64,000 nucleotides of DNA, taken from assembly GCA_903884505.1 (NCBI GenBank), contig CAISET010000015.1:10819-74818 (forward strand), given 5' to 3'. The notes under the pieces were generated by a model that ran no database searches, was not told the DNA's origin, and saw only the letters and a list, made by a program, of their open reading frames with translations. The DNA is from an uncultured Candidatus Micrarchaeota archaeon (GTDB lineage Archaea; Micrarchaeota; Micrarchaeia; Burarchaeales; Fermentimicrarchaeaceae). The translations under genes and the position numbers were made by a program. Of this stretch, positions 12,862-62,142 are shown piece by piece. Within the stretch, counting starts at the first letter, position 1. The number at the start of each line of letters is the position of its first letter.

Positions 12862-12961
12862 TTTCCTTAGTGGTCGCAGGGCATCCGTCGCCAAAGAATC
12901 TTATCCTAAACGAAGGGTGCCCACTATACTTCCCGAATGCGGAGTCCTACGGGGTGGGTGC

Positions 12962-33628: not shown

Positions 33629-34227
33629 GCCTGCCTTATTTCAATCGTCTTCACCACGCTCTTGAGCGGGGCGCCGTTGTAGGAGACCGTGACCGTGAAA
33701 TTGTGCAGCCCGTAAGAGATGCCCGTGCACGTCGTGCATGAGGGCACGTTGAACCCGAAGTGCTGTTCGCTCTCCCCCTGCGGAAGGTCTAGCGTCATCT
33801 GCGTATCCATGATATTGCGGCCCCTCGAGTTGGTGATGCCGACAAGCGAGACGTTCACCCCCTGGAGCCTGCGCGCGGCGGTTATGTTCACGACTATCGC
33901 CATCTGGTCCAGCGCGTGATAGGAATCCCCGTCAGTATATACTTCGAGCGAAGTTATATCCTCGGGCAGGACAGCGCCGGAAGGCGTGGGGCTGGCAAGC
34001 GATTGCGTGGGCGCAGGCGTAGGGGTTGCGACGGGAGTTGCGAAGGGCGTTGGCGCTGGCGTCGGAGTCTGAACTGGAGTTGGCGTGCTCATCGGGGTAG
34101 CCACGGGGGTTGGCGTTGGCGCGGGAGGCACATTTCTGTCAATCCCACCGCTATATACTACTATTGCCGCTGCCGCCATCACGACTGCGAGCAGAACCAC
34201 AACAAGAATCCAGGTCTTCATACTCAT
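33625..34227 (-). CDS. N-terminally anchored extracellular protein with a P/T-rich linker (unknown function), co-transcribed with the metalloprotease
   Basis: 200 aa: MSMKTWILVVVLLAVVMAAAAIVVY signal-anchor, (PT/PA) linker, then a ~100-aa domain. 4-bp overlap with the downstream protease gene. Confidence 0.5.
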   Translation of the reverse strand: MSMKTWILVVVLLAVVMAAAAIVVYSGGIDRNVPPAPTPTPVATPMSTPTPVQTPTPAPTPFATPVATPTPAPTQSLASPTPSGAVLPEDITSLEVYTDGDSYHALDQMAIVVNITAARRLQGVNVSLVGITNSRGRNIMDTQMTLDLPQGESEQHFGFNVPSCTTCTGISYGLHNFTVTVSYNGAPLKSVVKTIEIRQA

Positions 34228-34241
34228 GCCCCCTTTGATTT

Positions 34242-34356
34242 CAGAACCCCCGATGCGCTGGCTTTAGTCGCCTTCGGCGACAACTGCGCAACTCACGTTG
34301 CGCATCGCCAACTTCGTTGGCGACTGCCTGTTGCGCGTTGCGCAACATCGTCGGTT
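34242..34356. repeat. Hairpin-mosaic repeat element, copy A (4 mini-hairpins; shared termini CAGAACCCCCGATGCGC...GCGCAACATCGTCGGTTCCTGAAC)
   Basis: GTCGCC-TTCG-GCGAC, GCGCAAC-TCACG-TTGCGC, GCCAAC-TTCG-TTGGC, GTTGCGC-GTT-GCGCAAC. Homologous to the elements at 34541, 43781 and 50827. Confidence 0.8.
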
Positions 34357-34469
34357 CCTGAACTTCTGTTTTCCGCTGGCGCTTTTTATTATGTTCTTAC
34401 AATTTCCGATTGAACGCTTTACCATACGCAACCCGATGGTAATCGGATATGCGTTGGGAAAGGGTTCAA

Positions 34470-34540
34470 AGCAGAGGATGGGAGTCGAACCCATCTGTTC
34501 CGGTCTGCAGCCGGACGCGTAGCCGCTCCGCCACCTCTGC
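34470..34540 (-). tRNA. tRNA-Cys (anticodon GCA)
   Basis: Minus-strand sequence GCAGAGG-TG-GCGGAGCGGCTACGCG-TCCGG-CTGCAGA-CCGGA-ACAG-ATGGG-TTCGACT-CCCAT-CCTCTGC-U. It forms a 7-bp acceptor stem, a 5-bp anticodon stem with loop CUGCAGA (anticodon GCA), a T-arm with a TTCGA(C)T loop, and a U discriminator. Confidence 0.9.
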
Positions 34541-34700
34541 AGAACCCCCGATGCGCAGGCTTGAGTCGCCTTCGGCGACAGCTGCGCAACTTCGTTGCGC
34601 ATCGCTCTTCGTTCCAAACGAGCTCGCTCACCGCGCATATCCAGTCGCCTTCGGCGACTGCCTGTTGCGCGTTGCGCAACATCGTCGGTTCCTGCACCTC
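34541..34700. repeat. Hairpin-mosaic repeat element, copy B, immediately 5' of tRNA-Cys (in its presumptive leader)
   Basis: Same termini as copy A: agaacccccgatgcgcaggcttga-GTCGCCTTCGGCGAC-...-GCGCAACTTCGTTGCGC-...ctcgctcaccgcgcatatcca-GTCGCCTTCGGCGAC-tgcct-GTTGCGCGTTGCGCAAC-atcgtcggttcctgcac. Confidence 0.8.
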
Positions 34701-34752
34701 CGCCGCTCTGGCGGAGGAGCTTTCTATATTGTGTTAGTCTGGTTTAAAAACG

Positions 34753-39533: not shown

Positions 39534-40064
39534 ATGCGACGGAACAAGGGACAGGCATCCATTGATTCGCCTTCGGCGAAAGCTCGCCGCCTGCTGGGGC
39601 AGGCGTCGATGGAACTTCTAATCACCCTAGCCTTCGCCCTCGTGATGCTCATACCAATCACCATCCTGGTCTACCTGCAGACGTCCTCCGGCTCGGAGCA
39701 GCTGGCGATAGACCAGGCGCAGCAGAGCGCGGCAAGGCTTAAGAACATCGCGGACACCGTGGCGGCCCAGGGCCCGCCGGCGAAGGCGACTATAAGCATA
39801 GTGATTCCACAGAGGCTGAACAGCATAACGATAGGCAGCGCCTCCGCGCCAGGAATAGGCAGGGAGATAATCTTCCACGTAGCGACTTCGGCTGGAGACA
39901 CCGAGATAGTCGCGACAACGCTTTACAATGTTACCGGCGACCTGAGCAACTACACGAAGGCAGGCACGTACCCCATCTATGCTGAAGCTGTGGACGACTG
40001 CCGCACATGTGATGGGAACATCATCGGGCCTGGCCTTCCATGCGTGGTCATCTGTCCGGCGTAG
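39534..40064 (+). CDS. Type IV pilin-like protein (class III signal peptide, Gln+1) P1. The leader holds an internal duplication and a hairpin module.
   Basis: MRRNKGQASIDSPSAKARRLLG|QASMELLITLAFALVMLIPITILVYL. The KG/LG-Q cleavage motif is followed by a ~20-aa hydrophobic helix. The ORF track starts at 39474, upstream of the promoter. Confidence 0.65.
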   Translation: MRRNKGQASIDSPSAKARRLLGQASMELLITLAFALVMLIPITILVYLQTSSGSEQLAIDQAQQSAARLKNIADTVAAQGPPAKATISIVIPQRLNSITIGSASAPGIGREIIFHVATSAGDTEIVATTLYNVTGDLSNYTKAGTYPIYAEAVDDCRTCDGNIIGPGLPCVVICPA

Positions 40065-43752: not shown

Positions 43753-43780
43753 TTAGCCCTTTTGGATGGCAACAAATTCA

Positions 43781-44105
43781 TGCCGCCTTGCGGCAACAGC
43801 TTGCCCGCCACCAAGCGGGCAATCGCCTGCTGGCGAAATGTTGGCAACTGCGGCCGCCAACGCTCGCTGCCATATCCAGCCGCCTTCGGCGATTGATTTC
43901 GCCTTGCGGCGAAAGCTTTCGCATCCCGGATGCGAAATTTTAGCGGCAAAGCCGCTAAAGCTGTCGCTTTGCCGCGGGCAAAGCGCCATTGAGTCGCCTT
44001 TCGGCGACAGCTCAAATCGCCTGCGGCGATAACTGCGCAACTCACGTTGCGCATCGCCAACTTCGTTGGCGACTGTCTGTTGTTTCGCCCCGCTCAACAA
44101 CATCC
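43781..44105. repeat. Hairpin-mosaic repeat element, copy C (longest, ~13 mini-hairpins) in the convergent intergenic region
   Basis: TGCCGC-CTTG-CGGCA, GCCCGC-CACCAA-GCGGGC, GTTGGC-..-GCCAAC, CCGCC-TTCG-GCG, TTCGCC-TTGCG-GCGAA, TTCGCATCC-CG-GATGCGAA, AGCGGC-AAA-GCCGCT, CGCTTTGCC-GCG-GGCAAAGCG, GTCGCC-TTTCG-GCGAC, ATCGCC-TGCG-GCGAT, GCGCAAC-TCACG-TTGCGC, GCCAAC-TTCG-TTGGC. The 3' end is a degenerate copy of the shared terminus. Confidence 0.75.
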
Positions 44106-44135
44106 TAAAAGCGCTAGCGGAAAATGCCAAACTCT

Positions 44136-45128
44136 TTACGTAAGTATCCCGGCGAAGACGGTGCTGAATATCCAGTTCGTCATGAAGAAGATCGACAGCC
44201 CGGCAGCCATGATGAAGGGCATTATCCTTAGGCCGTTGGCGGAATTGCCGGTCTGTATGACCGCTATTATAAGAGACGCGATTGCCGTGGTGATGATGGT
44301 CGAGAGAAGGGAGAATGCGAAGAAGTCCGAGGACGTGATTCCGGGTGGCTGGGGCGAGAGGAACATCATCCCGCCGGTCGGCAGGCCCTCGGGGTTCTGC
44401 TCCAGCACCCTGTCCCATATGACGTTCGTGATGTTTATGAGCTGGTTGGACAGCGCATAGAGCAGGGGCGCGCCGACCACGCTCGCGAATATTATGAATA
44501 TGACATACATCAGCATCATTCCGGAAATCTCCTTGTGGAGCAGCTGCAGGTTCCTTATGTCCTGCCCCGTCTTCTCGAGCAGCGCCGCGACCTCGCCACC
44601 TGCCGACATCCCCTCAACGAGGAGGTTTATCGTCCTCTCGAGCGTCTTCGACTGGAACCGCGTCCCGAGCCTCTTTATCGCATCCATGAAAGGCTCGCCG
44701 CTGAACGTCCTCTTCGTGACCATCTCCACCTCCTGCGAGAGCAGGCCGAACTCGGGCCTGGCGGCGAACCACAGCGCCCGGTCTATGGGCATGCCGGCGC
44801 GCACATTGGCGCTCGCGAGCTGGAGGAACTCCGGGAGGATGTTCTCCACCTTGTTCCGCCTGTCGTCTATCCTGAGGAGCAGCCACGCATAAATTATCCC
44901 AAGCGCCACGAATATGAGGCACAGGGAAACTATCAGCGCATATTTCGGAAGGAACGGGTTGATGAGGAAGAACGAGACCAGCGGGACGATCGCGCAGAGC
45001 ACCATAACCGTGCCCACGAACGCCTCGGGCCTCATGTTCACTCCTGCCATCGAGAGCGTGCTCGCAATTCCCATCACGAAGTTCCTCGGAAACATCCTTC
45101 CCAGTGCGTTAAGCTCAACCATATTCAA
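44136..45128 (-). CDS. Type II secretion system F-domain membrane protein (FlaJ/TadC/EpdK-like pilus platform protein), C-terminal-half paralog
   Basis: 330 aa with ~8 TM segments and the T2SSF-like cytoplasmic segment (...LLQLASANVRAGMPIDRALWFAA...). 4-bp overlap with the upstream platform gene. Confidence 0.75.
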   Translation of the reverse strand: MNMVELNALGRMFPRNFVMGIASTLSMAGVNMRPEAFVGTVMVLCAIVPLVSFFLINPFLPKYALIVSLCLIFVALGIIYAWLLLRIDDRRNKVENILPEFLQLASANVRAGMPIDRALWFAARPEFGLLSQEVEMVTKRTFSGEPFMDAIKRLGTRFQSKTLERTINLLVEGMSAGGEVAALLEKTGQDIRNLQLLHKEISGMMLMYVIFIIFASVVGAPLLYALSNQLINITNVIWDRVLEQNPEGLPTGGMMFLSPQPPGITSSDFFAFSLLSTIITTAIASLIIAVIQTGNSANGLRIMPFIMAAGLSIFFMTNWIFSTVFAGILT

Positions 45129-46111
45129 ACCTCGAAGTTCGGCCTTGAAGAACTCATCATCGCAAGGAAGATGTACTGCAGCACCCCGAGCAGGAACAGC
45201 ACGATGAGCAGCATATTGAAGTCAATCTTTATGTTGATGAATGAGGTCAGGATAATGCCTATCGCGATGCCCAGCGAGGGCAGTATGATCCCGAAAAGCA
45301 TGTAGAACATCGTGATCGGGTTCAGCGTCTGCCCGTACCTCTTGAGCGCGATAACCTGCTCCTGCGAAATCTGGCTCAGCACTATCTCGAGCGCCAGCGC
45401 CATGTCGGCGCCGGACCTCATCGATGTGACCATCTGCAGGAGTATCTGCCTGAACGGCTTGGAGGTGTTCATGTCGCTGGACTCCTGCATGGCGATCTCC
45501 GCGGGCACGCCGCTCTGTATCCTCTCCACAATCTTCCCGAATTCCTCGCTCGCCACCCCGTAGTTCCTGCTGACGTTCGCCATCGCGTTGAAGAGCGGGA
45601 CGCCGGACTTTATGGCAATAAGCATGTCCCTCCCGGCGAAAAGCACGTCCCTGTCGAGGTCCTTCTCCCTCGCCTTTATCTTGACTTTCGGATACTGTAT
45701 AACCCACAGGAAGACGGCCGCGAAAACCAGCGGTATCACGAGCAGCGTTAGGAGCAGCGGCAAACTCAGGGTGGTCGCCAGCACTGCGAACAGTACTCCG
45801 CCCCCAAGCGCGAATATGGTTGCGACAATGAGGGTTTGTGCGATGAATTTTGGCGCGTCCATCGGCATGTTCGCCCTCTTCAGGTTCTTCTGGAGCTCCG
45901 GGAACCGCTTCTCTAGGAGCCTGAGGCCTATCTTGATATAGTCGGTCCGCTGCTTCGCCTCCACCCGCGGGAACTTCTTCGGAGGCGCCTTCTCAGCTTC
46001 CGTCCTCTCCACCAGGGCCGCCGTCTCCTTCTTCTGCTTGGCGCTGAGCTTCTTCTTCGCCTCCTCTATTGCAGCCGCAACCTCTGCAGCGCTTTTCTCA
46101 GCCATAAGCAT
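45125..46111 (-). CDS. Type II secretion system F-domain membrane protein (FlaJ/TadB/EpdJ-like pilus platform protein)
   Basis: 328 aa: cytoplasmic N-terminus, then TM helices and a T2SSF segment (...FAGRDMLIAIKSGVPLFNAMANVSRNYG...EIAMQESSDMNTSKPFRQILLQMVTSMRSGADMALALE...). Confidence 0.75.
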   Translation of the reverse strand: MLMAEKSAAEVAAAIEEAKKKLSAKQKKETAALVERTEAEKAPPKKFPRVEAKQRTDYIKIGLRLLEKRFPELQKNLKRANMPMDAPKFIAQTLIVATIFALGGGVLFAVLATTLSLPLLLTLLVIPLVFAAVFLWVIQYPKVKIKAREKDLDRDVLFAGRDMLIAIKSGVPLFNAMANVSRNYGVASEEFGKIVERIQSGVPAEIAMQESSDMNTSKPFRQILLQMVTSMRSGADMALALEIVLSQISQEQVIALKRYGQTLNPITMFYMLFGIILPSLGIAIGIILTSFINIKIDFNMLLIVLFLLGVLQYIFLAMMSSSRPNFEV

Positions 46112-46115
46112 CCAC

Positions 46116-46922
46116 TTACTCTTCCTTCATCTCTTTTTCTATCTCCTCTTTTAAGCGTTCCTCTCTTCTCTTCTTTTCCTCAGAGGACATCCTCTCCGAT
46201 ACCTTCCTGGCGATCTCCTCCTTGAGCACCTTCGCGCGCTCCATCCGCTTTGCCTCATCATCGGTCGGCTTCGCCTCGGGCTGCGGTTTTCCCCCCGCTT
46301 CCGGCGCCTGGGACAACTGCTGTGCGGCGGCCGGCTTCCTCTCCTCCATCTTCTCAAACAGCGTCTTCCTCGGGGCCTTCCCCATGAGCTTGGCAAGCCG
46401 CTCCCCCATCAGGCGCCTCTGTTCCTCCTCGCTGACAGCCGCAGTTGGCGCCTTTACCTCGGGCCTGGTTGGCGGTGCGGCAGGCAGTATCTTCCGCTGC
46501 CCAGCAGGCTCGACTGGCCGCGGCGAAGGGGCCTCGGCGGCGGGCTTCTCCGCCTTTGCTGCGGGCTTCGCTTTGACCTCTTCCTCCGCGAACCTCCTCT
46601 TCATCTTCTCCAGCTCTTCCTGCCCACGCTTCTCCCCTTCCTCCGGCGAGACCCTCGCCGCGCGCGGCGCAGCAGCGGCAGCAGGCACCCGTCCCTGCAC
46701 CACCCCCAGCTTGGCCTCGATGCGCAGCGCATCCTCAAGCGCCTTGTCGAAGCTCATCACGGAGATTTCGGTCGGGTCCTTCTCCTCGAAAAGCGCGGCG
46801 CCGGCGAGCTTCTCCTTCGGGATCTCCGGCATCAGGACAAGCAGCCCCTCAAGCCTCTTCACCTCGGCAATCGCCTCGCTGAAAAGAGCCTGGTCCACGT
46901 TTGGCAGCCTTTCTTCCGGCAT
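46116..46922 (-). CDS. Highly charged K/E/A/P-rich low-complexity protein (pilus-operon accessory; unknown)
   Basis: 268 aa with EEEVKAKPAAKAEKPAAEA-type tracts. Lies between the ATPase and platform genes on the same strand. Confidence 0.4.
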   Translation of the reverse strand: MPEERLPNVDQALFSEAIAEVKRLEGLLVLMPEIPKEKLAGAALFEEKDPTEISVMSFDKALEDALRIEAKLGVVQGRVPAAAAAPRAARVSPEEGEKRGQEELEKMKRRFAEEEVKAKPAAKAEKPAAEAPSPRPVEPAGQRKILPAAPPTRPEVKAPTAAVSEEEQRRLMGERLAKLMGKAPRKTLFEKMEERKPAAAQQLSQAPEAGGKPQPEAKPTDDEAKRMERAKVLKEEIARKVSERMSSEEKKRREERLKEEIEKEMKEE

Positions 46923-46931
46923 TGCACCACG

Positions 46932-48443
46932 CTACCAAAACTGCTCGGGGTTGAACTGCGCATCGGACTGGACCATGTTAAGGACATCCTCGGGGCTCCT
47001 GTAATACCTCGCGATGACAAGCCCCACGTCATCCACTGACATGACCTTGTTCTTGAACATCCACCTGAGCACCTTGGACTTCTCGGCTATGCTCTCGCCT
47101 ATCTCCTGGTGCGTCATGCCAGCATAGAGCGCGAGCGTGTCAGCAAGCACGCTCATCTCGTTCAGCTCCTTGATAGCATCAGTCTTCAAGTCCCATCTGT
47201 AGAGCACGTTCACGTCCCCGCCCTTCGTCACTTCCGCGAACTCCAGCACGCGGCGGATTCCGAGCCTCCTGTGCCTGAACTGGACCACTATCGCGCTGAT
47301 GGCATCCAGCATGGTCTTCGGGATGTTGACGGGCGGGTTTATCAGCCTTGTAATCGTGTCGCCGGCATTGTCCGCGTGCAGTGTCGCGTAAACCGAGTGC
47401 CCCGTGTGCATTGCCTCGAACAGCACCTCTGCCTCGCGCTGCCTTCGAATCTCTCCCACCAGCATCCTGTCGGGCCTCTGCCTCAGGGAATTGACTAGCA
47501 GGTCCAGCATCGTGACCTCTCCCTTCCCCTCGACATTCGCCTCCCTTGTAATCATGGGCACCCACTGGAAGAACTTGGGCAGCGTCAGCTCCCTCGTGTC
47601 CTCAATCGAGACTATGCGCTGGTTCGGCGGGATGAACGCGGAGATGGCGTTGAGGAAGGAGGTCTTCCCGCTCGCGGTCCCTCCGCTCACAATCACCGAG
47701 AGCTCGTTCTGGAAGCAGAGCCAGATGAGCGCAGCCACTTCCGGAGAAATGGTGTTCTTCTCCATCAGGCGCGTTATTGTCCAGGGGTTCCTTGCGAACT
47801 TGCGGATTGTAATCGTGTTGCCGTGCATGGAGACCGGGAACAGCGTGGCATTCACACGCTCCCCGCTCGGCAGGTGTGCGTCCATCAGCGGGTTCAAAAT
47901 GGTTATCTGCTTCCCAATCCTCCTGCCTATGGAAGCGGCATGCTCGTAGATAGCCTCCTCGCTCTTGAGCCTTATGTTCGTCTTGCACCATCCATACGTC
48001 TTGTGGTATATCCAGACGGGCTCATCCGCGCTGTTGACGACTATCTCCTCGAGCTGGTCGTCATGCAGGGGCGGCTCCAATTCGCCCATCCCAAGCATCT
48101 GCTGTATCAAATATGATGCCAAAATCTTCTTCGTGTCTTCGCTGAGCGTCATGAAGTGCTTCTCGAGCAGCCTCGTGGCCTTCTCCTCGAACTTCCTCTT
48201 CACCTGCTCGGCCATCCTCGGATTGATAAGCTCGCTGACATCGAGCTTCACCTCGGTTATGAGCTCTCCCTTCAGCGTGTTCAGGACTATCTTCGTCCCT
48301 TCCCCCAGCCCCGGTATGGCTATTTCATAAAGGGGCACGAAGTCCCTAGTCTGCAAAATCCTGACATTGACCGGTATCCCGTCTGCGTCTATGCTGTACT
48401 GGTCAAGCAGCTTCTCCTCGCCTTTTCCCGCAACATCAGCCAC
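46932..48443 (-). CDS. Type IV pilus / archaellum-family secretion ATPase (FlaI/TadA/PilB-like, VirB11 superfamily)
   Basis: 503 aa with Walker A GGTASGKTSFLNA, Asp box IVSIEDTRE, Walker B/His box ...RPDRMLVGEIR...TGHSVYATLHA. Confidence 0.9.
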   Translation of the reverse strand: MADVAGKGEEKLLDQYSIDADGIPVNVRILQTRDFVPLYEIAIPGLGEGTKIVLNTLKGELITEVKLDVSELINPRMAEQVKRKFEEKATRLLEKHFMTLSEDTKKILASYLIQQMLGMGELEPPLHDDQLEEIVVNSADEPVWIYHKTYGWCKTNIRLKSEEAIYEHAASIGRRIGKQITILNPLMDAHLPSGERVNATLFPVSMHGNTITIRKFARNPWTITRLMEKNTISPEVAALIWLCFQNELSVIVSGGTASGKTSFLNAISAFIPPNQRIVSIEDTRELTLPKFFQWVPMITREANVEGKGEVTMLDLLVNSLRQRPDRMLVGEIRRQREAEVLFEAMHTGHSVYATLHADNAGDTITRLINPPVNIPKTMLDAISAIVVQFRHRRLGIRRVLEFAEVTKGGDVNVLYRWDLKTDAIKELNEMSVLADTLALYAGMTHQEIGESIAEKSKVLRWMFKNKVMSVDDVGLVIARYYRSPEDVLNMVQSDAQFNPEQFW

Positions 48444-50804: not shown

Positions 50805-53800
50805 ATGTCCCGAAACCGTGCCCAATCAGAACCCCCGATGCGCAGGCTTGAGTCGCCTTCGGCGATTGTGTCGCCTTCCGGCGACAGCTCGCCAACTTCG
50901 TTGGCGACTGCTGCGCAACTTCCGTTGCGCATCGCTCTTCGTTCCAACGCGATTTGCGCTTCGGCGCAAATGCGTCGCAGTTCGCCACCGAGGCGAACTT
51001 GCGAACGAACTCGCTCGCCGCGCATATCCAGTCGCCTTCGGCGACTGCCTGTTGCGCGTTGCGCAACATCGTCGGTTCCTGAACCTCCGCACATCAAAGG
51101 TCAGGCAGCCATAGAGTTTCTTATTACAAACGGCTGGGCCATCCTCGTCGTAGTCATCCTTCTCGCCGTCCTCTTCTACATAGGAGTTTTGAGCCCCCAG
51201 AACACCACGCCTAACACCTGTCTTTTCCAACCCGGCTTCTCCTGCTACACATTCAAAGTGGGAAATGTAACCGGTTCCCTGGAACTGGATTTTGGCCAGG
51301 CGACAGGCAAATCAATTCTAGTCACAGGAATCTCCTGCTCCCAGAACGCAACTGCCGCACTCCATACATCTCCCCTTGCGGAGGACATCACCGTCCCATC
51401 AGGCGAGCATCGCTGGATTGCCGGGGGAACTTCCAACAACAGCGGCATCATCTGCGAAGGCGCGACAGGCGTGGCAGGTAGCAGGTACAAGGGCACAGTC
51501 TGCGTAAATTACATCGAATCCGACGCCAACGCCCAAAGATTAATCTGCGGAGACATAAACGCGAGGCTTGAGCCGGCATCCATACCCCGCGGGAGCCCGA
51601 CAACTACGCCATACCCGACTCCGCCGCTAGGAGCGACTCCCATCACCGACTGCTCCTCCAGCCCCATCATAATCAGCTCTCCGGGCTATTACTACCTGAA
51701 CAGCAGCCTTACCTCAAGCGGCAACAACTGCATAGAAATAACCGCGGACGCCAGCAACTCCATCCTGGACTGCTATGGCCACAGCATAACCGGCACACCC
51801 TACAGTGGCGCGGGCATCTATCTGCAGGCCACCACTGGAGTAACTCTGAGGCATTGTGTCGTTAGCACATTCTATCAGGGCATTCTCCTGGGCCCTTCCT
51901 CCACTGGCAACATCATCACGGACAACACCGCCAGCTCGAACCAACATGGCATCTTCCTTCAGTCGGCCAACGGCAACACCATAACCGGCAACATTGCCAA
52001 TTCGAACGGCGACACGGGCATCTACTTCTTCTCCTCGAGCGACAACAACCTTACCGGCAATAACGCCCTTGCAAACAACGGCTACGGCATCTATACGGAC
52101 GGCAACTCGGCCAACAACCTGTTCACGGGAAATGCCGCCTGCTGGAACCGGAACCAGGACGTCCACTGCGACGTGTCCCAGAGCGAGGGCAATGATAACA
52201 TCTGCATGCCCTACGAGGAAACCGTCTGCTCGGGCAGCATCACCTGCAACCCCGTCTGTCCGGCTCCCCCGGCTCCCGCATGCGCGCCAGGCTTTGTGGT
52301 GAGTTCCTGCGACTGCGTGCTGAACGTTCCCGGCAATTACACGCTTGAAAGCGACCTGAATGAGACGCAGGGCGGCGACTGCATAGATATCATAGCAAAT
52401 GATTCGAACCTCGACTGCCAGCACCACAGCATCACGAGCCAAAGCGGCGGCACCGGCATAATGATAGTCAACTGGAATACCTATAGCATAAGCGGAGTGA
52501 GCGTTGAAAACTGCAACGCCAGCAACCTCTCATATGGAATTTACGCATACGGCGTGTACAACAGCACAATAACGGACAACATTGCCAGCGCGAACCAATA
52601 TGGCATCTTCATCCAGTCGTCCAGCGGCAACATCATCTCGGGCAACACCGCCAACTCGAACCCCAATACCAACATCTACCTCTCTTCCGCAACAGACAAC
52701 AACCTCACGGGCAACACTGCCCTCGCAAGCATCAACGGCTACGGCGTCTATGCGGACGGCAGTTCGAGCAACAACCTGCTCACGGAAAACTCCGCCTGCT
52801 GGAACCAATACGGGGACGTATACTGCGACGCGCCCCAAACTGAGGGCAACGGCAACATCTGCATGCCATACGAGGGAACCGCGTGCCTGGACAGCATCAC
52901 CTGCAACCCCACATGCCCATCGCCTTCCCCACCGGATTGCGCACCGGGCTGGGTGGTAAGCTCCTGCGGCTGCACGCTGAACATGCCTGGCAACTACACA
53001 CTGGAAAGCGACCTGAATTCCACGGGCGGCGACTGCATAGACATCACGGCAAATGGTGCGAACCTCGACTGCCAGCACCACAGCATCACAACCCAAGGCG
53101 GAGGCAACGGCATAATGATAGCCAACTGGAATACCGGCAGCATAAGCGAAGTGAGCGTTGAAAACTGCAACCCGAGCAACTTCAGCGTTGGCATCTACGC
53201 GTATGGCTTGAGCGGCGGCAACATGAGCGGCAACACCGCCAGCGCCAATTCCGAGGGCATGATGCTGCAGAACTCCAACGGCATTGAAATCACGGGCAAT
53301 ACCGCCAGCTCGAACTCCGATGTCGGCATCCTCCTATCGTCATCAAGCGACAACAACCTCACGGGCAATCACGCCACTGGGAACAACGGAATCGGCGGCA
53401 TCTATGCGGACTCCGGTTCCAGCAACAACCTACTCACGGACAACACCGCCTGCTGGAACACATATTATGGCATCTACTGTGATGCGCCCCAAACTGAGGG
53501 CAACGGCAACATCTGCATGCCATACGGGGAAACCGCGTGCTTGGGCAGCATCACCTGCAATTCCGAATGCCCGCCGCCTGAGCCGCCCGCCTGCGCCCCA
53601 GATTGGGTGGTGAATAGCTGCTCATGCATCCTCGGAGTGCCGGGAGATTATACGCTTGATTCCGACCTGCATTATTCGGACTACAGCGATTGCATAGACC
53701 TCTATTCCGGCGCAAGCGGCTCAACCCTCGACTGCCAGGGGCACAGCATAACCGGAGTTCCGGGCATGGGGCAGGGCATCGCACTCTGGTCCAATAACAT

Positions 53801-55514: not shown

Positions 55515-55586
55515 CCCATCCCTTCTCCTGCCCCACTCCGCCGCCATAGCCTGCATCCTCTCCGGCGCCTCAACTCCCAAATGCCC

Positions 55587-55602
55587 GAAAAGCCTTTTAA
55601 GC
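55587..55602 (+). promoter_or_regulatory. Promoter of B2 (gaaaagccttttaagc); TATA ends 24 bp before the GTG at 55624
   Basis: Shared motif aaa(a/g)cc(c)ttttaa(a/g), also found upstream of P1, B3 and B4. Confidence 0.5.
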
Positions 55603-55623
55603 ACTCTTCCGCCAACCTTAGCG

Positions 55624-57075
55624 GTGGTTCCCTTGGGAGAGAAGCGCGCTCAATCGGCTCTTGAATTTCTCATGACCTACGGCTGGGCCATAGTACTCAT
55701 ACTCGCCGCCATCGCAGCCCTCTACTACTTCGGATTCTTCGAATCCACCCGCTACGTCCCGAGGAGCTGCACGCTGCAGCCCGCGCTTCCGTGCGACACC
55801 TACGTGATGGGCTACAACGCGAGCGCCACCGAGCCGCTCTCCTTCAAGATGCTGAGCCACAACGGCCTCGGTTCCGACATAAACCTCACCGGCTTCTCCA
55901 TAAGCGTTGAAAACATCGGAGGGGTGGGGACGAACACCTACCAGGGCGCATGCTCCAGCTATGACAACACCACCCAAACAATCTCCTCGCTCACGCATCC
56001 GGGCAATCTCATCATCTGCGATGCAGACATACCGGACACGGACCGCATCCCGCGCATCGGCGATCCGGTCCGCTTCACGATAACAATGTATTACGTCAAC
56101 TGCGAAACCGACCCGAACTACCACACGACGGGCTCCTGCTTGGGAGGCACCGCGCACACCGTGCAGGGCTCGGTGAACACGCAGCTCGAGTACGAGCACG
56201 AAATGCCCTACCCCACCCCATGCTGCCCGCTCCCAACCCCGTCCCCAACTGCCAGCCCATCCCCGTCACCTTCGCCAACTGCAAGCCCGTCCCCAAGCCC
56301 CTCACCTTCGCCAAGCCCATCGCCTTCGCCCAGCCCTTCCGTGACCCCATCCTCTTGCCCGACTGGAGGCGGAACCATATTGGCCTGCCCATGCACCATA
56401 CACGGGGCGGGCACGTATACTTTGGGCGATGATCTGAACCCGAATCCAGACGGCTTCACCTGCCTGGTAGTGCAAAGCGATTCCGACAATGCAGTAATCA
56501 ACTGCGATGGCCATAACATCACGGGCCCAGGCGATTTCGGCGTTGTCGTATATGCCAACGGCGTCACCCTTGAGGGCTGCAACATACATCAGTACGGGAA
56601 GGGCATCGTGACTTACGGCAACAACACCATCATAACGAATAATAGGATGACCGAGGGCGACATAGGGATAGACCTTGAAAGCAACGGAAACCGCGTAACC
56701 GGCAACAACGCATCACACAATGGCTATCCCTTAGTTGCCGGCACTGGACTCATAGTAGGCGGCTCCAACAATGTGATTGAGAACAACTATTTCGATTCGA
56801 ACTGGGGCGGCACCGGTTCCTACGAAGGGGGCATTGGCATCGACATAGAAGGGTCGTCGGCAAGCGGCAACAATTTCACAAACAACGAGGCCATCGGGAA
56901 CAACTACTGGGGCGTTTACCTCGGCTATCTCACCCACACCGATAACAGGTTCACGGGCAACACGGCGACCGGCAACCCGCACGGAGACTTCAAATGCAAT
57001 TCGGCAAGCGCCATAGACGGTGACAACATCTGCTCGGACGATCAAGGCTGCAGCAGCTGGCTCCACTCCTGTTGA
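55624..57075 (+). CDS. Pilin-like beta-helix protein B2 (GTG start; alternative TTG at 55633). Class III signal ..EKRA|QSALEFLMTYGWAIVLILAAI.
   Basis: ~480 aa: a conserved ~170-aa post-pilin domain shared with B3/B4 (DTSRY(I/V)PRxC.LQP.L.C..., NCE(A/T)DP(D/N)YHTTG.C), an (SP)n linker, a Cys knot, then parallel beta-helix repeats (..VTGNNASHNGY.., ..FTNNEAIGNNYWG.., ..FTGNTATGNPHGDFKCNS..). Confidence 0.7.
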   Translation: MVPLGEKRAQSALEFLMTYGWAIVLILAAIAALYYFGFFESTRYVPRSCTLQPALPCDTYVMGYNASATEPLSFKMLSHNGLGSDINLTGFSISVENIGGVGTNTYQGACSSYDNTTQTISSLTHPGNLIICDADIPDTDRIPRIGDPVRFTITMYYVNCETDPNYHTTGSCLGGTAHTVQGSVNTQLEYEHEMPYPTPCCPLPTPSPTASPSPSPSPTASPSPSPSPSPSPSPSPSPSVTPSSCPTGGGTILACPCTIHGAGTYTLGDDLNPNPDGFTCLVVQSDSDNAVINCDGHNITGPGDFGVVVYANGVTLEGCNIHQYGKGIVTYGNNTIITNNRMTEGDIGIDLESNGNRVTGNNASHNGYPLVAGTGLIVGGSNNVIENNYFDSNWGGTGSYEGGIGIDIEGSSASGNNFTNNEAIGNNYWGVYLGYLTHTDNRFTGNTATGNPHGDFKCNSASAIDGDNICSDDQGCSSWLHSC

Positions 57076-57150
57076 CCCCAAAAGCCAGCCTGAACAGCCT
57101 TCCGCCATTTCCCCGCAGTGGCGTCCTTGCGCAGAACCGGCAAAAGCGCC

Positions 57151-57166
57151 AAAAACCCTTTTAAAT
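57151..57166 (+). promoter_or_regulatory. Promoter of B3 (aaaaacccttttaaat); TATA ends 26 bp before the GTG at 57190
   Basis: Lies inside the ORF-track ORF (57118 start), which argues for the downstream GTG/TTG start. Confidence 0.5.
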
Positions 57167-57189
57167 CACCTTCTGCCCAGTCTTCCCGG

Positions 57190-60100
57190 GTGGTCCCTTT
57201 GAAGAACAGCGGGCAGTCGGCACTTGAGTTCCTCATGACCTACGGTTGGGCCCTACTCGTGGTATTGGTCTTCATCTCCGCCCTCTACCTATTCGGCGTA
57301 TTCGACACGAGCCGCTACATCCCGAGGCAGTGCTACCTGCAGCCCGGGCTCGAATGCACCTCCTTCAAGATGATGAAAAACGAGAGCAACATGACGGTCG
57401 AATTTTCGGGCCGCAACGACTTCGGCTATGACATCGGGTTCGCAAACAACACGGCGACGCTGTTGGCCGAGAACATAGGGGGGATAGGCAAGAACAATTA
57501 CACCGGCACCTGCTCACCCTCCATAGTAAGGGCGGGCACCACCTACACCTGCATCATCAACATCACGGACAATGCGCGCGTCCCCGCGCTCGGCGAAATG
57601 CGCAGGATGTCGCTTTCATTGGGTTTCAAGAACTGCGAGGCCGATCCGGACTACCACACGACCGGCGACTGCTTCACGGTTCTTGCGCAAGACCACACGC
57701 TCACGGGTGAAATCGCCACGCAGATGGAAAACTACCAGAGCCTCAGCCTCTGCGGCAACGGCATATGCGATGACAACCTCGGAGAGACCAATGACACCTG
57801 CTCCCAGGACTGCAACGTCACCGCCGTGGGCCTGCAGATAGCCGCAGACCCGCAAGCCATACCGGCCGACGGCACCTCCTCCTTGCTGGTAACGGTAACA
57901 GTCCTGGACATATTCAGCCACCCCATCGAGGGCGCCTTGGTCCATTTCGAGAAGAACACCAGCGTGGGCTCTTTCAACGTTGACAGCAACACCACCGATG
58001 CGAACGGCCAGGCGACCGTCACCCTGACTTCCGGCAACAGCGAGGCGCAGGTGCAGATAAACGCAACATCCGACACCGCGACGGGCAGCACGGTCGTCGC
58101 CTTCACCTTCGGCTGCGGCGTGATTATCTCGGAGGACACAAACCTCACGGACGACCTTTCCTCCACCAGCCCCGGCTGCTGCATCATCATCGCGGCGGAC
58201 GGCGTAACGCTTGACGGCATGGGCCACACCATTTCCGGCGGCGGCGTCGGGAACGGCGTTTGCGCAATCAACCGCACCGGCGTGACCGCCAAGAACCTCA
58301 GGCTTGCAAGCACCAACTACGGGATATACTTTGAGAACACGAACGACAGCTTCATCACGGGCAACAACGCAACCCCGGACAACGAATACGGCATCATCCT
58401 TAACCTCTCCAACGGCAACAGCCTCTCCGGCAACACCGCCAGCAGCAACGGCGCATACGGCATCTTCCTCACCGCCAGCGCATTCAACATCTTCACGGGC
58501 AACAACATCACCAACAATTCCGGCGACGGCATCTCCCTCGCGAGCAACAGCAATTCCAACAACTTCACCGGCAACAACGTAACCTACAACACGGGGAACG
58601 GCATACGCCTGGACTCCATCAGCAATAGCAACCTCACGGGCAACCGCGTCTGCAGCAACACCGTCTCGGACTTCAGCTGCTCCGGCTCGGCCAACAACCC
58701 GGATGGCAACGTTTACGACACCAACTCCGGCTGCACGGAGATTACGCAGACCGTGGACTGCGCAGGCGAGCACACCATCAATGACTGCACCACGGTTTCC
58801 TCCTCCGGCACATGGCACGTGGGACGGGACATAGGGTTCACGGGCGGCACCTGCTGCATCAACATCACCGCAGACAACGTCGTGATTAACGGCTCCAGCT
58901 ACTCCATCACCGGCGACAACGCCACAGGAAGCATGGGCGTGTGCACGTACGACAAGCAGGGCATCACGGTCGCGGACCTGACCACTGCTTCGGTGCAATA
59001 CGGAATCTATTTCTCCAACACGCAAAGCAGCATTATAACGCGCTGCAATGCCAGGAATACGCTCAGCGGGAGCGGCATCCGCCTTGATTACTCCAATTCA
59101 AACAACATCACGGGCACCAACGTGACCTCGAACGATGCAGCCGGCGTCCCGCGCAATGGTGCCATCTACCTGAACAACTCGGACAGCAACAGGATTACCG
59201 GGAGCAATGCAAGTTCGAACAGCGCGGGAGGCATCCTGCTGCATTATTCCGACAGCAACACCATCTCAGGCAACACTGTCACTTCGAATTCGGGGCCTAG
59301 CGTAGGAGGCATTTACCTAGATGGCAGCAACAGCAACAGCATAACGGGCAATACTGTCAGCGGGAATAGCGACGGCATAGGATTGTTAGGTAATGTGGAG
59401 CCCCCCTACGCCTACTGCTGCAACTCCAACACCGTCTCGGGCAACAGCGTTACAAACAACGGCGTAGGCATCGGCCTAGACTGCAGCGGCGGGACAGGCG
59501 ACGGCCGCAACAACGTCATCTCAGACAACAACATCTGGTCAAACAGCGACAACGGCATTGGCATAACTTCTTCCATACTCGATACCACAATACTGAGGAA
59601 TAACATCACCTACAATACCCATGGCATCGAAGCAATTTTCGGCATGGGCGGCTCTTACATGACAATCGCAGGGAATAACATAAGTTCGAATTCGTTAAGC
59701 GGCATCGTCATAGAAGATGGCGATGTGAACACCATAGCAAACAACACCGTCAATTCGAATAGCCTCGGCGGCATCCGGCTTCACTACTCGACGGGCAATA
59801 CCCTAACGAACAACACATTTAATTCAAATACGGAGACCGGCATATGGCTGCAAAATTCCAACAACACCCAACTCAGCAACAACACGGCCTGTTTCAACTC
59901 CGTAATAGACTTCAATTGCAGCGAAGGCGCGACCAACGACTGGGGCAACAACTTCTACGATTACAACTCAGGGTGCGGCATATTCCAAATCGCCAACTGC
60001 TCATTCTCGCCAATCAGCGACTGCGGCATAATCTCCTCCAGGGGAAACTATTACCTGACGGATGATATCACATTCACGGGCTCCGGCTGCTGCATCAACA

Positions 60101-60465
60101 TAACGTCAGACAACGTCCTCCTCGATGGGAAGTACAAGTCCATAGGGGGCAATGGCAACGGGTACGGGGTCTGCGCCACCGGGAGGCTGAACGTGACGGT
60201 CCAGAATGCCACCGTGTGGGGCACTGAATACGGCATCTACTTCGACGGGACGAACAGCAGCTACATCCTAACCGACATCATGAGCGGGAACACCTATGAC
60301 ATATACGCGCTCTCATCCATCAGCAACACGATTGCAAACAACCTTGCCTGCTCAAGCGATCCCAGTTGGGGCCTCTATTGCTCCGGCTCGAGCGGCACCT
60401 TCACCGATAATAGCTGCAATAACCAGAGCGGATGCGGCGCCACCTGCTCACCCTGCGTGGACTAG
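57190..60465 (+). CDS. Giant pilin-like beta-helix protein B3 (GTG 57190 or TTG 57199: MKNSG|QSALEFLMTYGWALLVVLVFI)
   Basis: ~1090 aa: pilin N-domain, Big_1-like Ig domain (LQIAADPQAIPADGTSSLLVTVTVLD...ANGQATVTLTSG), then three long parallel beta-helix repeat arrays (..GNNxT.N.GxGI.L..S.SN..TGN..), each preceded by a Cys-rich segment. Confidence 0.7.
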   Translation: MVPLKNSGQSALEFLMTYGWALLVVLVFISALYLFGVFDTSRYIPRQCYLQPGLECTSFKMMKNESNMTVEFSGRNDFGYDIGFANNTATLLAENIGGIGKNNYTGTCSPSIVRAGTTYTCIINITDNARVPALGEMRRMSLSLGFKNCEADPDYHTTGDCFTVLAQDHTLTGEIATQMENYQSLSLCGNGICDDNLGETNDTCSQDCNVTAVGLQIAADPQAIPADGTSSLLVTVTVLDIFSHPIEGALVHFEKNTSVGSFNVDSNTTDANGQATVTLTSGNSEAQVQINATSDTATGSTVVAFTFGCGVIISEDTNLTDDLSSTSPGCCIIIAADGVTLDGMGHTISGGGVGNGVCAINRTGVTAKNLRLASTNYGIYFENTNDSFITGNNATPDNEYGIILNLSNGNSLSGNTASSNGAYGIFLTASAFNIFTGNNITNNSGDGISLASNSNSNNFTGNNVTYNTGNGIRLDSISNSNLTGNRVCSNTVSDFSCSGSANNPDGNVYDTNSGCTEITQTVDCAGEHTINDCTTVSSSGTWHVGRDIGFTGGTCCINITADNVVINGSSYSITGDNATGSMGVCTYDKQGITVADLTTASVQYGIYFSNTQSSIITRCNARNTLSGSGIRLDYSNSNNITGTNVTSNDAAGVPRNGAIYLNNSDSNRITGSNASSNSAGGILLHYSDSNTISGNTVTSNSGPSVGGIYLDGSNSNSITGNTVSGNSDGIGLLGNVEPPYAYCCNSNTVSGNSVTNNGVGIGLDCSGGTGDGRNNVISDNNIWSNSDNGIGITSSILDTTILRNNITYNTHGIEAIFGMGGSYMTIAGNNISSNSLSGIVIEDGDVNTIANNTVNSNSLGGIRLHYSTGNTLTNNTFNSNTETGIWLQNSNNTQLSNNTACFNSVIDFNCSEGATNDWGNNFYDYNSGCGIFQIANCSFSPISDCGIISSRGNYYLTDDITFTGSGCCINITSDNVLLDGKYKSIGGNGNGYGVCATGRLNVTVQNATVWGTEYGIYFDGTNSSYILTDIMSGNTYDIYALSSISNTIANNLACSSDPSWGLYCSGSSGTFTDNSCNNQSGCGATCSPCVD

Positions 60466-60473
60466 CCTTTCAT

Positions 60474-60487
60474 AAGCTTTTTTAAAC
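60474..60487 (+). promoter_or_regulatory. Promoter of B4 (agcttttttaaaca); TATA ends ~26 bp before the GTG at 60511
   Basis: Same box and spacing as for B2/B3. Confidence 0.5.
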
Positions 60488-60510
60488 ACCCTGCTGCCAA
60501 TTTCCGTACT

Positions 60511-62142
60511 GTGATAGCTCCGGGAAAAAGGCACGGGCAATCCGCGATTGAATTGCCTTCGGCAATAGCTCGCAGATCGCACGGGCAATCTGCGATTGAA
60601 TTCCTCGCCACGTACGGCTGGGCCCTCCTCATCATCCTCGTATTCATCGCCGCCCTATACCTATTCGGCGTATTCGACACGAGCCGCTACATCCCGAGGC
60701 ACTGCTCACTGGAGCCCGGGCTCGAGTGCTCCTCCTTCAAGATGATGAAGAACGACACGTACATCACCGTGGTCTTCTCGGGCTACAACGGCCTCGGCTA
60801 CGACATAGGGTTCGATGCCGGCACCGCAACCCTGATGGCCGAGAACATAGGGGGCATAGGCAAGAACAACTACGTGGGCACGTGCTCTCCATCCCTGGTC
60901 AGGAAAGGGACGCCCTATACCTGCGTAATCATCACCAAGGACATGAACCGAACCCCTGCGCTCGGAGAGGCACGAAGGATGGGCATCTCACTCACATACA
61001 AGAACTGCGAGACAAATCCCGCCTACCTCGCAAACCGCACGGCAGCCAACTGCGCCGCCCCGCTCGCCCAGAGCCGCACGGTCACGGGCGAAATGGCCAC
61101 CCAGATGGAAAGCTATTCCGACACCCTATGCGGGAACGGAATCTGCGACGACAACCTGGGGGAAACCGCTTCAAACTGCCCGGCCGACTGCCTGCCCCGG
61201 CCATTCAGCATGCACCTCGCCTCCAACCAGTCCGCCATAACGGCAAACGGCTCCTCCTCGCTTCTGACAGCGACCCTCTTCGACCAGTTCGGCAGCCCGC
61301 TCCCCGACTTCGAGGTTGATTTCAGCCAGAACTCCACCGATGGGTCGCTCGATTCCAGCTCGGGCACCACGAACGACACCGGGCAGGCCAGCGTCACCCT
61401 CACCTCGGGAACAACCCCGCAGTGGGTGCTCGTGAACGCGACGGCGGGCTCGGCATCCGGGATTACGGTCGTGGTCTTCACAGGGGCCGCCCCGACTCCA
61501 ACTCCTACCCCAACCCCCACACCAACTGCAACTCCGACGCCAACGCCCACACCTACTCCAACCCCCACGCCGACCCCAACTCCGGCACCGACCTGTCCCG
61601 ATTCCGGGCAAACGGAGTTAACGACTTGCACCGGAACGCCGATTTCGAGTGCCGGCACATACGTCATGTGCCACAATCTCACATCTTGCACGGGCTTTAC
61701 GATAGGCGCAGACAACGTTTTGCTGGACTGCCAGGGTTACTCGTTGATCGGCTCCGGGAGCGGAACAGGCATGTACATGCTCGACCGCACCGGAGTGAAC
61801 GTGACTAACTGCAACATTCAGAGCTTCAGCTTAGGCATGTATCTCAACGGCGGCAGCGGCAGCCATGGCTGCAGGGTTACAAACAACAACTTCACAAGTG
61901 ACACCACTGCAATGCAGGTATGGCATTCATCATACAGCAACCTAATCCAGAACAACAGGATTACGGGCGCCACGAATGGGTTTTATGTCGCCTTGAGTGC
62001 CTCTAGCAACACATTCACAAACAACATCGGAACGAGCAACACTTACGACTTTATCTGCGCTAGCGAAGGATCTGGCAACACCGCCACCGGGAACACCTGT
62101 ACCTACCGCGATTCCTGCACCTGGGTCGATTGCGGATCGTGA
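60511..62142 (+). CDS. Pilin-like beta-helix protein B4 (GTG 60511 or TTG 60553). The leader carries a 24-bp duplication around a TTCG hairpin.
   Basis: MIAPGKRHGQSAIELPSAIARRSHG|QSAIEFLATYGWALLIILVFI. Same N-domain and Big_1-like domain as B3 (78% identical stretches), a (TP)n linker, a Cys knot and a short beta-helix array. Confidence 0.7.
   Translation: MIAPGKRHGQSAIELPSAIARRSHGQSAIEFLATYGWALLIILVFIAALYLFGVFDTSRYIPRHCSLEPGLECSSFKMMKNDTYITVVFSGYNGLGYDIGFDAGTATLMAENIGGIGKNNYVGTCSPSLVRKGTPYTCVIITKDMNRTPALGEARRMGISLTYKNCETNPAYLANRTAANCAAPLAQSRTVTGEMATQMESYSDTLCGNGICDDNLGETASNCPADCLPRPFSMHLASNQSAITANGSSSLLTATLFDQFGSPLPDFEVDFSQNSTDGSLDSSSGTTNDTGQASVTLTSGTTPQWVLVNATAGSASGITVVVFTGAAPTPTPTPTPTPTATPTPTPTPTPTPTPTPTPAPTCPDSGQTELTTCTGTPISSAGTYVMCHNLTSCTGFTIGADNVLLDCQGYSLIGSGSGTGMYMLDRTGVNVTNCNIQSFSLGMYLNGGSGSHGCRVTNNNFTSDTTAMQVWHSSYSNLIQNNRITGATNGFYVALSASSNTFTNNIGTSNTYDFICASEGSGNTATGNTCTYRDSCTWVDCGS

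Follow-up and report, generated by a model that had tools for sequence, protein, structure and literature searches.

Based on comparisons of DNA and protein sequences, we suggest that two in-frame 48-nucleotide (nt) segments in the leader-peptide regions of the type IV pilin-like genes P1 and B4 are copies of a single lineage-specific palindromic cassette. Both genes lie in the 64,000-nt stretch from an uncultured Candidatus Micrarchaeota archaeon (contig CAISET010000015.1) that is analysed here and referred to as the window. In our reading, to which we give a probability of roughly 0.6, the cassette is prone to gain and loss and would be tolerated in a leader that is cleaved off; a regulatory role of the cassette is hypothetical. 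The window has a G+C content of ~57-58% and holds an archaeal locus resembling those for type IV pili, which comprises a T2SSE ATPase, two T2SSF platform genes and nine genes encoding class III signal peptides, and its closest public relatives are metagenome-assembled genomes (MAGs) of Micrarchaeota and Iainarchaeota. P1, the exact protein of which is present on 11 contigs of public collections, starts with ATG at 39534 and has the leader MRRNKGQASIDSPSAKARRLLG|QASMELL, while B4 starts with GTG at 60511 and has the leader (M)IAPGKRHGQSAIELPSAIARRSHG|QSAIEFL. As described in an initial annotation of this DNA, the sequences and coordinates of which can be read directly from the window, the G-Q-x-x cleavage motif is doubled ~16 codons apart in both leaders; we find that each gene has exactly 48 additional bases and that the two copies of the motif, M1 and M2, keep exactly the same 48-nt register. 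The near-exact 24-bp direct repeat reported for B4 is also there (23 of 24 positions identical, or 22-23 over 23-24 nt depending on the segment compared), and the P1 copies are weaker (14/23). Three of the nine pilin-like genes, i.e. P1, B4 and B1, carry inserts, as had been noted, and the remaining leaders are short (at 40084, 55648 and 57211, and in the open reading frames (ORFs) 40536, 41153 and 41680).

The second copy of the motif has the layout of a class III site in both proteins (P1, RRLLG|QASMELLITLAFALVML; B4, RRSHG|QSAIEFLATYGWALLIIL), with basic residues, G at -1, Q at +1, E at +5 and ~20 hydrophobic residues downstream. By contrast, SPSAKARR or LPSAIARR, and not a hydrophobic helix, comes after the first copy, and in one related gene (L043 g1) this copy has Asp at -1 (MARD|QSAIE). 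Because only the second copy adjoins the hydrophobic helix, it is presumably the one recognized by the prepilin peptidase.

Several filled and empty sites indicate that the 48 nt are an insertion rather than the product of ordinary divergence. The B4 paralogues par55 and par57 align cleanly with B4 around a 48-nt gap, the B4 orthologue L7_g2 on the Micrarchaeota MAG contig L007 has a short leader without the insert, and the leader of P0001, the sole B4 homologue from the first search, is also short. For P1, the orthologue P0285, which lies on a 5.5-kb contig in Logan, is >90% identical and belongs to the same cluster at ≥90% identity, has the plain leader MRRNKGQASMELL and reads MRRNKG|QASMELLITLAF (MRRNKG|QASMELL); relative to P1, exactly the 16 residues QASIDSPSAKARRLLG are missing, making P0285 an empty site. 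At the DNA level, the filled P0169 and the empty P0180 have flanks that are ~97% identical and differ by exactly 48 nt, and P0177 and P0206 form a further filled/empty pair. As judged from these alignments, the cassette is shown to be gained or lost on short evolutionary timescales. The initial annotation had proposed that extended leaders without hairpin or duplication signatures in related genomes would speak for ordinary divergence; instead, the relatives have short leaders, favoring insertion. The idea that the extended leaders are ancestral and have simply diverged could draw on the modest identity of the two P1 copies. It is, however, refuted by the gap relative to the paralogues, the P0169/P0180 pair and the empty P0285 allele, and we consider it extremely improbable: empty alleles occur at >90% protein identity or ~97% DNA identity, paralogues and orthologues lack the insert, and the invariant cores GCCTTCGGC and AGCT are common to genes that cannot otherwise be aligned. 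GCCTTCGGC occurs nine times in the window, always on the plus strand, compared to 1.4 expected occurrences (6-7 times over-represented), and none of 100 shuffled sequences reached nine. The ninth match, at 26334 within ORF 26186-27109, is outside any hairpin module and is probably there by chance.

We named the 48-nt cassette the PSA unit after the encoded Pro-Ser-Ala. It consists of a motif tail (ATTGAnTn), a first hairpin (nnnGCC-TTC-GGCnnn), the AGCT linker, the motif head in inverted form (CGCnGnnnGC), a loop of 4 nt and a new direct copy of the motif head (GGnCAnnCnGCG); in register, the unit reads M1 (GGnCAnnCnGCnATTGAnTn) - GCC-TTC-GGC - nAn - AGCT - CGCnGnnnGC - nnGG - GCAnnCnGCG - AT(T/G)GA.... 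In P1, the motif head in M1 is GGACAGGCATCC, and the insert has the same register as in eight other units. Placed within a native motif, the cassette generates the order motif, inverted motif, motif and, therefore, the leader displays G-Q twice. The initial annotation had described a single TTCG mini-hairpin per insert. These hairpins exist at the positions given (Table 1), but the TTCG loop was a mis-parse: the 6-bp stems extend to a 3-nt TTC loop closed by C-G, and we reject a reading as UUCG tetraloops. Moreover, a second hairpin of 10-11 bp, which had been overlooked, is present in each insert; it has a 4-nt loop in both genes, and its 3' arm consists of the codons of the second, presumably cleaved, G-Q-x-x motif. 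The ends of the unit are direct motif copies and not terminal inverted repeats (TIRs), while longer elements described below have TIR-like ends.

The two helices covary strictly. Over nine distinct units (16 pairs and 144 stem cells), 93.8% of the stem cells are paired, double changes are present at seven of the 16 pairs (15 cells), and one-sided changes are absent; none of 500 shuffles matched this, and sliding the stem partners lowered pairing to 22-54%. There are no G·U intermediates among the 144 cells, and the mismatches in 29 distinct stems are mainly C·T and A·C, with G·T accounting for two of 23. At the same time, the central loop base is free to vary, which replaces Ser by Pro or Ala, and the stems are retained. 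Because the stems covary without G·U pairs while the loop residue varies, it is Watson-Crick complementarity of the DNA, and not the peptide, that acts as the constraint or as the generating mechanism, and there is no signature of RNA wobble pairing. The 68-nt units folded as DNA are more stable than shuffled sequences (z between -2.4 and -4.2).

With respect to the origin of the second motif copy, the initial annotation had invoked insertion of a hairpin module with target duplication. The insertion of a module agrees with the empty paralogues and orthologues, but the simple target-duplication part of this model is contradicted by two observations. First, only GCGAT (5 nt) is common to both junctions of the P0169/P0180 pair, and the second motif copy is not target-derived: the second G-Q-S of P0169, GGCCAGTCG, differs at three of nine nt from the native GGACAATCC, which is kept in both alleles, and it pairs perfectly with the insert's own arm. 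Second, M1 is on average no closer to the M2 of its own unit (14.2/20) than to the M2 of other units (14.1/20). Also, no duplication was seen around the long elements in the window. Because the second G-Q-S in P0169 is non-native yet pairs with the arm of the insert, the cassette appears to bring its own copy of the motif together with an inverted copy. B4 (M1/M2 19/20) and P1 are exceptions in which the copies share gene-specific features. Thus, Q-A-S/CAGGC, which is specific to P1, is present in M1, the arm and M2, and compared to the common cassette, compensated double changes in the units of B4 and P1 bring the new head closer to the sequence of the local gene. This pattern points to gene conversion between the copies together with palindrome correction, or to some templating by the target.

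Using pattern scans and protein searches, we identified at least nine distinct copies of the unit, spread over the families of P1, B4, B1 and the small pilins and over several Micrarchaeota/Iainarchaeota contigs. In addition to the window, the unit is present in L007 g3, L033/L043 g1, L043 g2 (three times) and in P0169, P0172, P0177, P0176, P0021, P0020, P0165, P0173 and P0178. Its presence is independent of orthology, i.e. the carrier on L007 belongs to the B1 family while the L007 orthologue of B4 is empty, and one syntenic gene (in the order AAA ATPase, pilin, pilin, inositol phosphatase) holds one, two or three or more units in three contigs. Leaders with inserts are 21-24 residues long in P1 and B4, 65 residues in L043 g2 and 98 residues in B1, compared to ~5-10 residues in the leaders without insert considered here. 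A scan of a genome collection in which the window's own genome is not represented gave one real match (L007) and eight chance matches, and 32 of 34 matches in a metagenome scan were chance matches in GC-rich bacteria. A first protein search with a leader profile recovered no insert-bearing proteins owing to word-index limits, while an exhaustive search with the first 70 residues of B4 gave 2854 relatives, nearly all of which align from the mature part only; among the top 150 relatives of the B4 N-terminus, five have doubled leaders. No modules were found in viral contigs. We found no description of doubled class III leaders in the literature searched, and the palindromic repeat family is previously undescribed.

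The doubling of the motif is not restricted to this unit. At least four sequence-unrelated types of insert double it, including EFAGDVPRKHRG, TGFSPAKIRGLCRG, GFSLREK... and a 22-residue type in Nanoarchaeota that has filled and empty orthologues of its own. Across the 13 leaders for which DNA was available, and which cover at least four unrelated types, the best inverted match to the motif is 2-4 nt upstream of the motif in ten. All insert forms are stop-free multiples of three (42, 48, 51, 54, 60 and 66 nt, and the 285-nt B1 leader), and the forms recovered by protein search are biased towards open frames.

This recurrence bears on two readings in which the structure itself matters. In the first, selection maintains the hairpins as a cis-acting structure of the RNA or the transcribed DNA that covers the codons of the cleavage site and tunes translation, mRNA stability or the co-translational targeting of certain pilins; a further role of the inverted motif might be that of an antisense against other pilin mRNAs. 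The strong covariation kept across diverged genes is compatible with this, as are the unrelated insert types that converge on a hairpin engaging the motif codons 2-4 nt upstream and the position of the hairpins just within the start of the P1 and B4 mRNAs, which are probably leaderless because TATA-like TTTTTAA boxes lie ~27-29 nt upstream of the start codons (~27 nt for the P1 ATG). However, the regulated RNA structure spanning the translation start region, which the initial annotation had offered as an alternative, is not borne out. G·U pairs and one-sided intermediates are lacking, the mismatches are not of the wobble type, and RNA folding of 121-nt contexts of P1 and B4 was no better than for shuffled sequences (z = -0.06 and -0.5). 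The unit is sporadic among near-identical orthologues, modules are found in either orientation relative to genes, including antisense to neighboring genes, and in non-coding DNA, and the window has no covariance-model match in Rfam 15 at the gathering threshold and E≤1 except for the tRNA-Cys. We therefore regard a selected cis-acting structure as highly doubtful. In the second reading, which we consider distinctly unlikely, the motif, inverted motif, motif layout is a selected device or, alternatively, a miniature mobile element of a new class with the class III signal sequence as its specific target. As a device, it may be a DNA or RNA hairpin that acts as a switch at the codons of the cleavage site, gain and loss through the repeats being a form of phase variation, and may control which pilins a DPANN cell deploys, having arisen convergently in Micrarchaeota, Iainarchaeota and Nanoarchaeota-type lineages. 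As a mobile element, it may find this target through its own copy of the sequence.

The unit is related to longer hairpin arrays. The B1 leader contains a multi-hairpin element in frame (covariance-model matches at 50850-50918 and 51019-51122), which is followed by HIKG|QAAIEFL at 51099, and three further arrays are in non-coding DNA (Table 1). A unit-like segment of the convergent intergenic array (43973-44043) even "reads" GQSAIESP and matches the covariance model with 34.5 bits (E ~3e-6). The three long elements at 34242-34368, 34540-34702 and 50827-51089 have conserved TIR-like ends in common, CAGAACCCCCGATG and the reverse complement of CAGGAACCGACGATG, and differ in the number of modules. 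The first of these elements holds the 43-mer GTCGCCTTCGGCGACAACTGCGCAACTCACGTTGCGCATCGCC (window position 34267), which is identical in L049, a contig from another metagenome. In L049, a 42-nt module pair is inserted exactly at the AGC|T linker of the unit relative to L048 and L045. When the arrays are parsed into modules, consecutive arms alternate between GCGA and TCGC and, therefore, each AGCT linker is the center of an alternative palindrome. GCGAT corresponds to the motif's own Ala-Ile/Met codons, and the alternation is the pattern we would expect from serial fold-back copying around the motif. All window copies are on the plus strand, and modules sit in either orientation relative to neighboring genes. 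An open frame through the B1 element was considered as a sign of selection and set aside as weak, since modules are stop-poor in most frames.

In the model that we favor, the cassette would be a member of a family of ~20-nt hairpin modules, similar to REP (repetitive extragenic palindromic) sequences and MITEs (transposable elements of the miniature inverted-repeat type), in Micrarchaeota and Iainarchaeota genomes. These modules would also build the longer arrays in 5' untranslated regions, intergenic DNA and the B1 leader, and arrays would grow by insertion of modules at the AGCT linker. Serial fold-back or template switching around the GCGA/TCGC of the motif itself may have given rise to the cassette, which may have spread between pilin genes by recombination via the conserved motif and may be lost by slippage between the repeats. 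Its presence would be tolerated rather than needed: cleavage removes the leader, the unit has no stop codon and a length divisible by three, and the inverted motif, as it happens, supplies the Arg residues needed by a class III leader (CGC being the reverse complement of GCG). Several points weigh against this model. The motif copies do not have a uniform origin: the second copy is foreign to the gene in P0169, while gene-specific features recur in both copies and the arm of B4 and P1. Each filled/empty pair is compatible with a gain and also with a precise loss. The same architecture is repeated across several DPANN lineages, and compensated stem changes (15 cells) exceed broken ones (nine cells), both of which could equally reflect selection for function. 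Pfam scans of 30 ORFs in the 64-kb window gave no transposase or other dedicated enzyme, and the second G|Q copy is assigned as the cleaved site from its sequence context.

An alternative to spread by recombination is that the modules are a true transposable element mobilized in trans, as single-stranded hairpins, by an HUH/tyrosine transposase similar to RAYT (REP-associated tyrosine transposase) or the IS200/IS605 TnpA, which would be encoded elsewhere in the genome and target the short sequence of the signal motif and the AGCT linker. The hairpins are indeed short and dispersed, and many have AGCT or AACT directly 5'; the window copies share one orientation regardless of the direction of the neighboring genes; modules are identical over 17-43 nt in different genomes; and the two-module insertion precisely at AGC|T in L049 and the TIR-like ends of the long elements fit this idea as well. 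On the other hand, the window encodes no such enzyme, neither a consistent target-site duplication nor a conserved cleavage tetranucleotide has been demonstrated, the viral contigs lack matches, and the ends of the cassette imitate the motif, which fits better with homology-driven exchange. On balance, we consider transposition in trans to be unlikely.

Finally, the insert could be removed or skipped, either as an archaeal bulge-helix-bulge (BHB) intron or by translational bypass between the matching G-Q codons as in gene 60 or the byp elements. The insert is short, hairpin-rich and flanked by matching codons, and subtraction of the 48 nt gives a canonical leader. Nevertheless, every form is a stop-free multiple of three, which would be unnecessary under excision, although the forms from protein searches were ascertained as ORFs; the take-off codon is not followed by a stop codon; and the predicted folds are two independent hairpins, each of which pairs the insert with one flank, while a BHB requires exon-exon pairing. 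We rejected both versions on fold and frame, the hBHBh' motif being absent, and consider them very improbable.

Table 1. Coordinates of the genes, inserts, hairpins and arrays in the window
Feature	Position	Strand	Source
P1, small gene with class III signal (type IV pilin-like); leader extended to 21 residues	39534..40064	+	
P1 48-nt insert, 16 codons QASIDSPSAKARRLLG; boundaries slide within the repeated G-Q-A-S codons	39552..39599	+	
P1 hairpin 1, TTCGCC-ttc-GGCGAA, 6-bp stem, 3-nt loop	39566..39580	+	
P1 alternative palindrome, CGGCGA-aagc-TCGCCG, centered on the AGCT linker (39581-39584)	39574..39589	+	
P1 hairpin 2, TCGCCGCCTGC-tggg-GCAGGCGTCGA; 11-nt arms 39584-39594/39599-39609	39584..39609	+	
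B4, large protein with class III signal, Big_1 and beta-helix/NosD domains; leader extended to 24 residues	60511..62142	+	
B4 motif copies M1/M2; 23/24 identical, spacing 48	60531..60554/60579-60602	+	
B4 48-nt insert, 16 codons QSAIELPSAIARRSHG; boundaries slide within the direct repeat	60538..60585	+	
B4 hairpin 1, ATTGCC-ttc-GGCAAT, followed by the AGCT linker (60567-60570)	60552..60566	+	
B4 hairpin 2, TCGCAGATCGC-acgg-GCAATCTGCGA; 11-nt arms 60570-60580/60585-60595	60570..60595	+	
Paralogues par55 (mature N-terminus 55648) and par57 (57211), ordinary short leaders, B4 "empty sites"	55624..60465	+	
B1 multi-hairpin element, 263 nt, ~9 modules, in frame in the B1 leader (ORF 50805-55514)	50827..51089	+	
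Multi-hairpin element copy 1, flanked by a TATA-like box and the start of gene 33625-34227 (minus)	34242..34368	+	
Multi-hairpin element copy 2, directly next to the tRNA-Cys 5' end (34470-34540, minus)	34540..34702	+	
Non-coding array of ~10 hairpin modules, convergent intergenic region	43781..44072	+	
Pilus machinery, two T2SSF platform genes and T2SSE ATPase	44136..48443	-	Pfam scans

Rickettsia palindromic elements (RPEs) are short multicopy palindromes that are inserted in frame in protein-coding genes, where they are translated, and are also found in non-coding DNA (PMC10969869). Together with other intragenic MITEs, they are the nearest described analogue, and in-frame palindromic insertion is common to both systems, with translation of the unit here being presumed. 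However, RPEs are ~100-150 bp, bacterial (Rickettsiales) and scattered over unrelated metabolic genes, while the unit reported here is 48 nt, archaeal and found at one site, the cleaved class III leader, and has its own copies of the target motif in direct and inverted form. There is no sequence similarity between the two, and the relation is one of analogy only. Like MITEs, the modules are multicopy within the window and beyond it.

REP sequences and BIMEs (bacterial interspersed mosaic elements), which are linked to RAYT, and IS200/IS605-derived palindromes are imperfect palindromes of ~20-40 nt that are dispersed and clustered, have a conserved adjoining sequence and show strand bias. The modules share these design principles: they are imperfect palindromes, dispersed and arrayed, with a short conserved sequence beside the hairpin and a strand bias. 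However, REPs are extragenic and their orientation usually alternates within BIMEs, while the window copies share one orientation (plus) and some are intragenic (P1, B4 and B1); moreover, no RAYT or TnpA was found within the 64 kb. To our knowledge, REP/RAYT or IS200/IS605-derived palindromic elements have not been described in DPANN archaea. Template switching in imperfect palindromes yields a direct-inverted-direct layout with short loops and Watson-Crick co-variation of the arms. The unit is similar in its motif, inverted motif, motif order, its short loops, the alternating GCGA/TCGC arms and the strict co-variation of the arms. Such quasipalindrome events are normally sporadic mutations, while here one product is a recognizable family in many genes and genomes. 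The GC-cluster/double-hairpin and byp elements of yeast mitochondria are tiny, mobile two-hairpin inserts in coding regions with matching codons on either side; byps break the frame and are skipped by the ribosome, while the inserts here are always in frame and stop-free, and nothing indicates bypassing. Lastly, canonical archaeal class III leaders are typically short. In the doubled leaders, the second site is canonical, but the leaders are longer and contain a decoy first motif.

DPANN archaea need surface filaments for attachment to their hosts and encode many pilin paralogues. If the hairpins are regulatory, or if gain and loss are programmed, the cassette would add a new layer of control over the composition of archaeal pili. 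The inserts also represent a natural experiment in which a class III leader tolerates up to ~98 residues and a decoy cleavage motif, and they provide a tractable case for studying the origin of palindromic repeats, their homology-driven spread and the co-evolution of their arms in genomes with reduced repair systems. On a practical note, gene callers and signal-peptide predictors will mis-call such proteins, and several entries start at an internal Met or far upstream. The database calls for P0287, P0192, P0201, P0218 and P0286 start at the motif's internal Met (MEYLMTYGW..., MELLITLAF...); these entries may stem from truncated contigs or could conceal leaders with frame-breaking inserts. In P0165/P0289 from a Candidatus Iainarchaeum MAG, the called ORF extends ~145 residues upstream of the doubled leader, and this upstream part has more SPSA-like stretches (EGSPSAVAEAL, SQSPSSIAER), suggesting a long in-frame array as in B1.

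Several observations concern the surroundings of the arrays. The second multi-hairpin element (163 nt) exactly separates a TATA-like promoter region (~34720-34750) from the 5' end of the tRNA-Cys gene, and the tRNA-Cys transcript would have a long structured 5' leader unless the element supplies its own promoter. A 221-residue minus-strand ORF (43753-44418) runs antisense through the intergenic hairpin array; given that stop codons are rare in most frames of the modules, it is almost certainly spurious. In another genome, the 70-nt gap between the genes for PPDK and diphthamide synthase has the module TCGCCAAC-ttc-GTTGGCGA (L048:2436, L049:2383 and the equivalent in L047), which also occurs unchanged in three copies in the window; in one sample, the loop is the variant CTC. 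We considered L047 versus L048/L049 at this site as a filled/empty case and rejected it because they differ in the loop variant only. A solitary 8-bp hairpin at 1072-1090, AGGGGGAC-ttc-GTCCCCCT, is in a convergent intergenic gap and has the C-TTC-G loop of the module family; it may be a solo module or a terminator-like structure. The perfect 11-bp palindrome CAGTACTGCCC-cggc-GGGCAGTACTG at 32808-32833, inside the large minus-strand ORF 31175-33628, is unrelated in sequence to the modules.

Elsewhere in the window, B1-B4 (50805-62142) are four consecutive genes for very large class III-signal proteins with NosD/beta-helix repeats of ~66-69 nt period, Big_1 domains and Pro-Thr linkers; they resemble pilin-anchored adhesins, and a syntenic array is present in L007. 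A giant ORF of 3456 residues (12917-23287) is adjoined by an 841-residue ORF (10225-12750) with four to five tandem 237-nt repeats (11146-12350).

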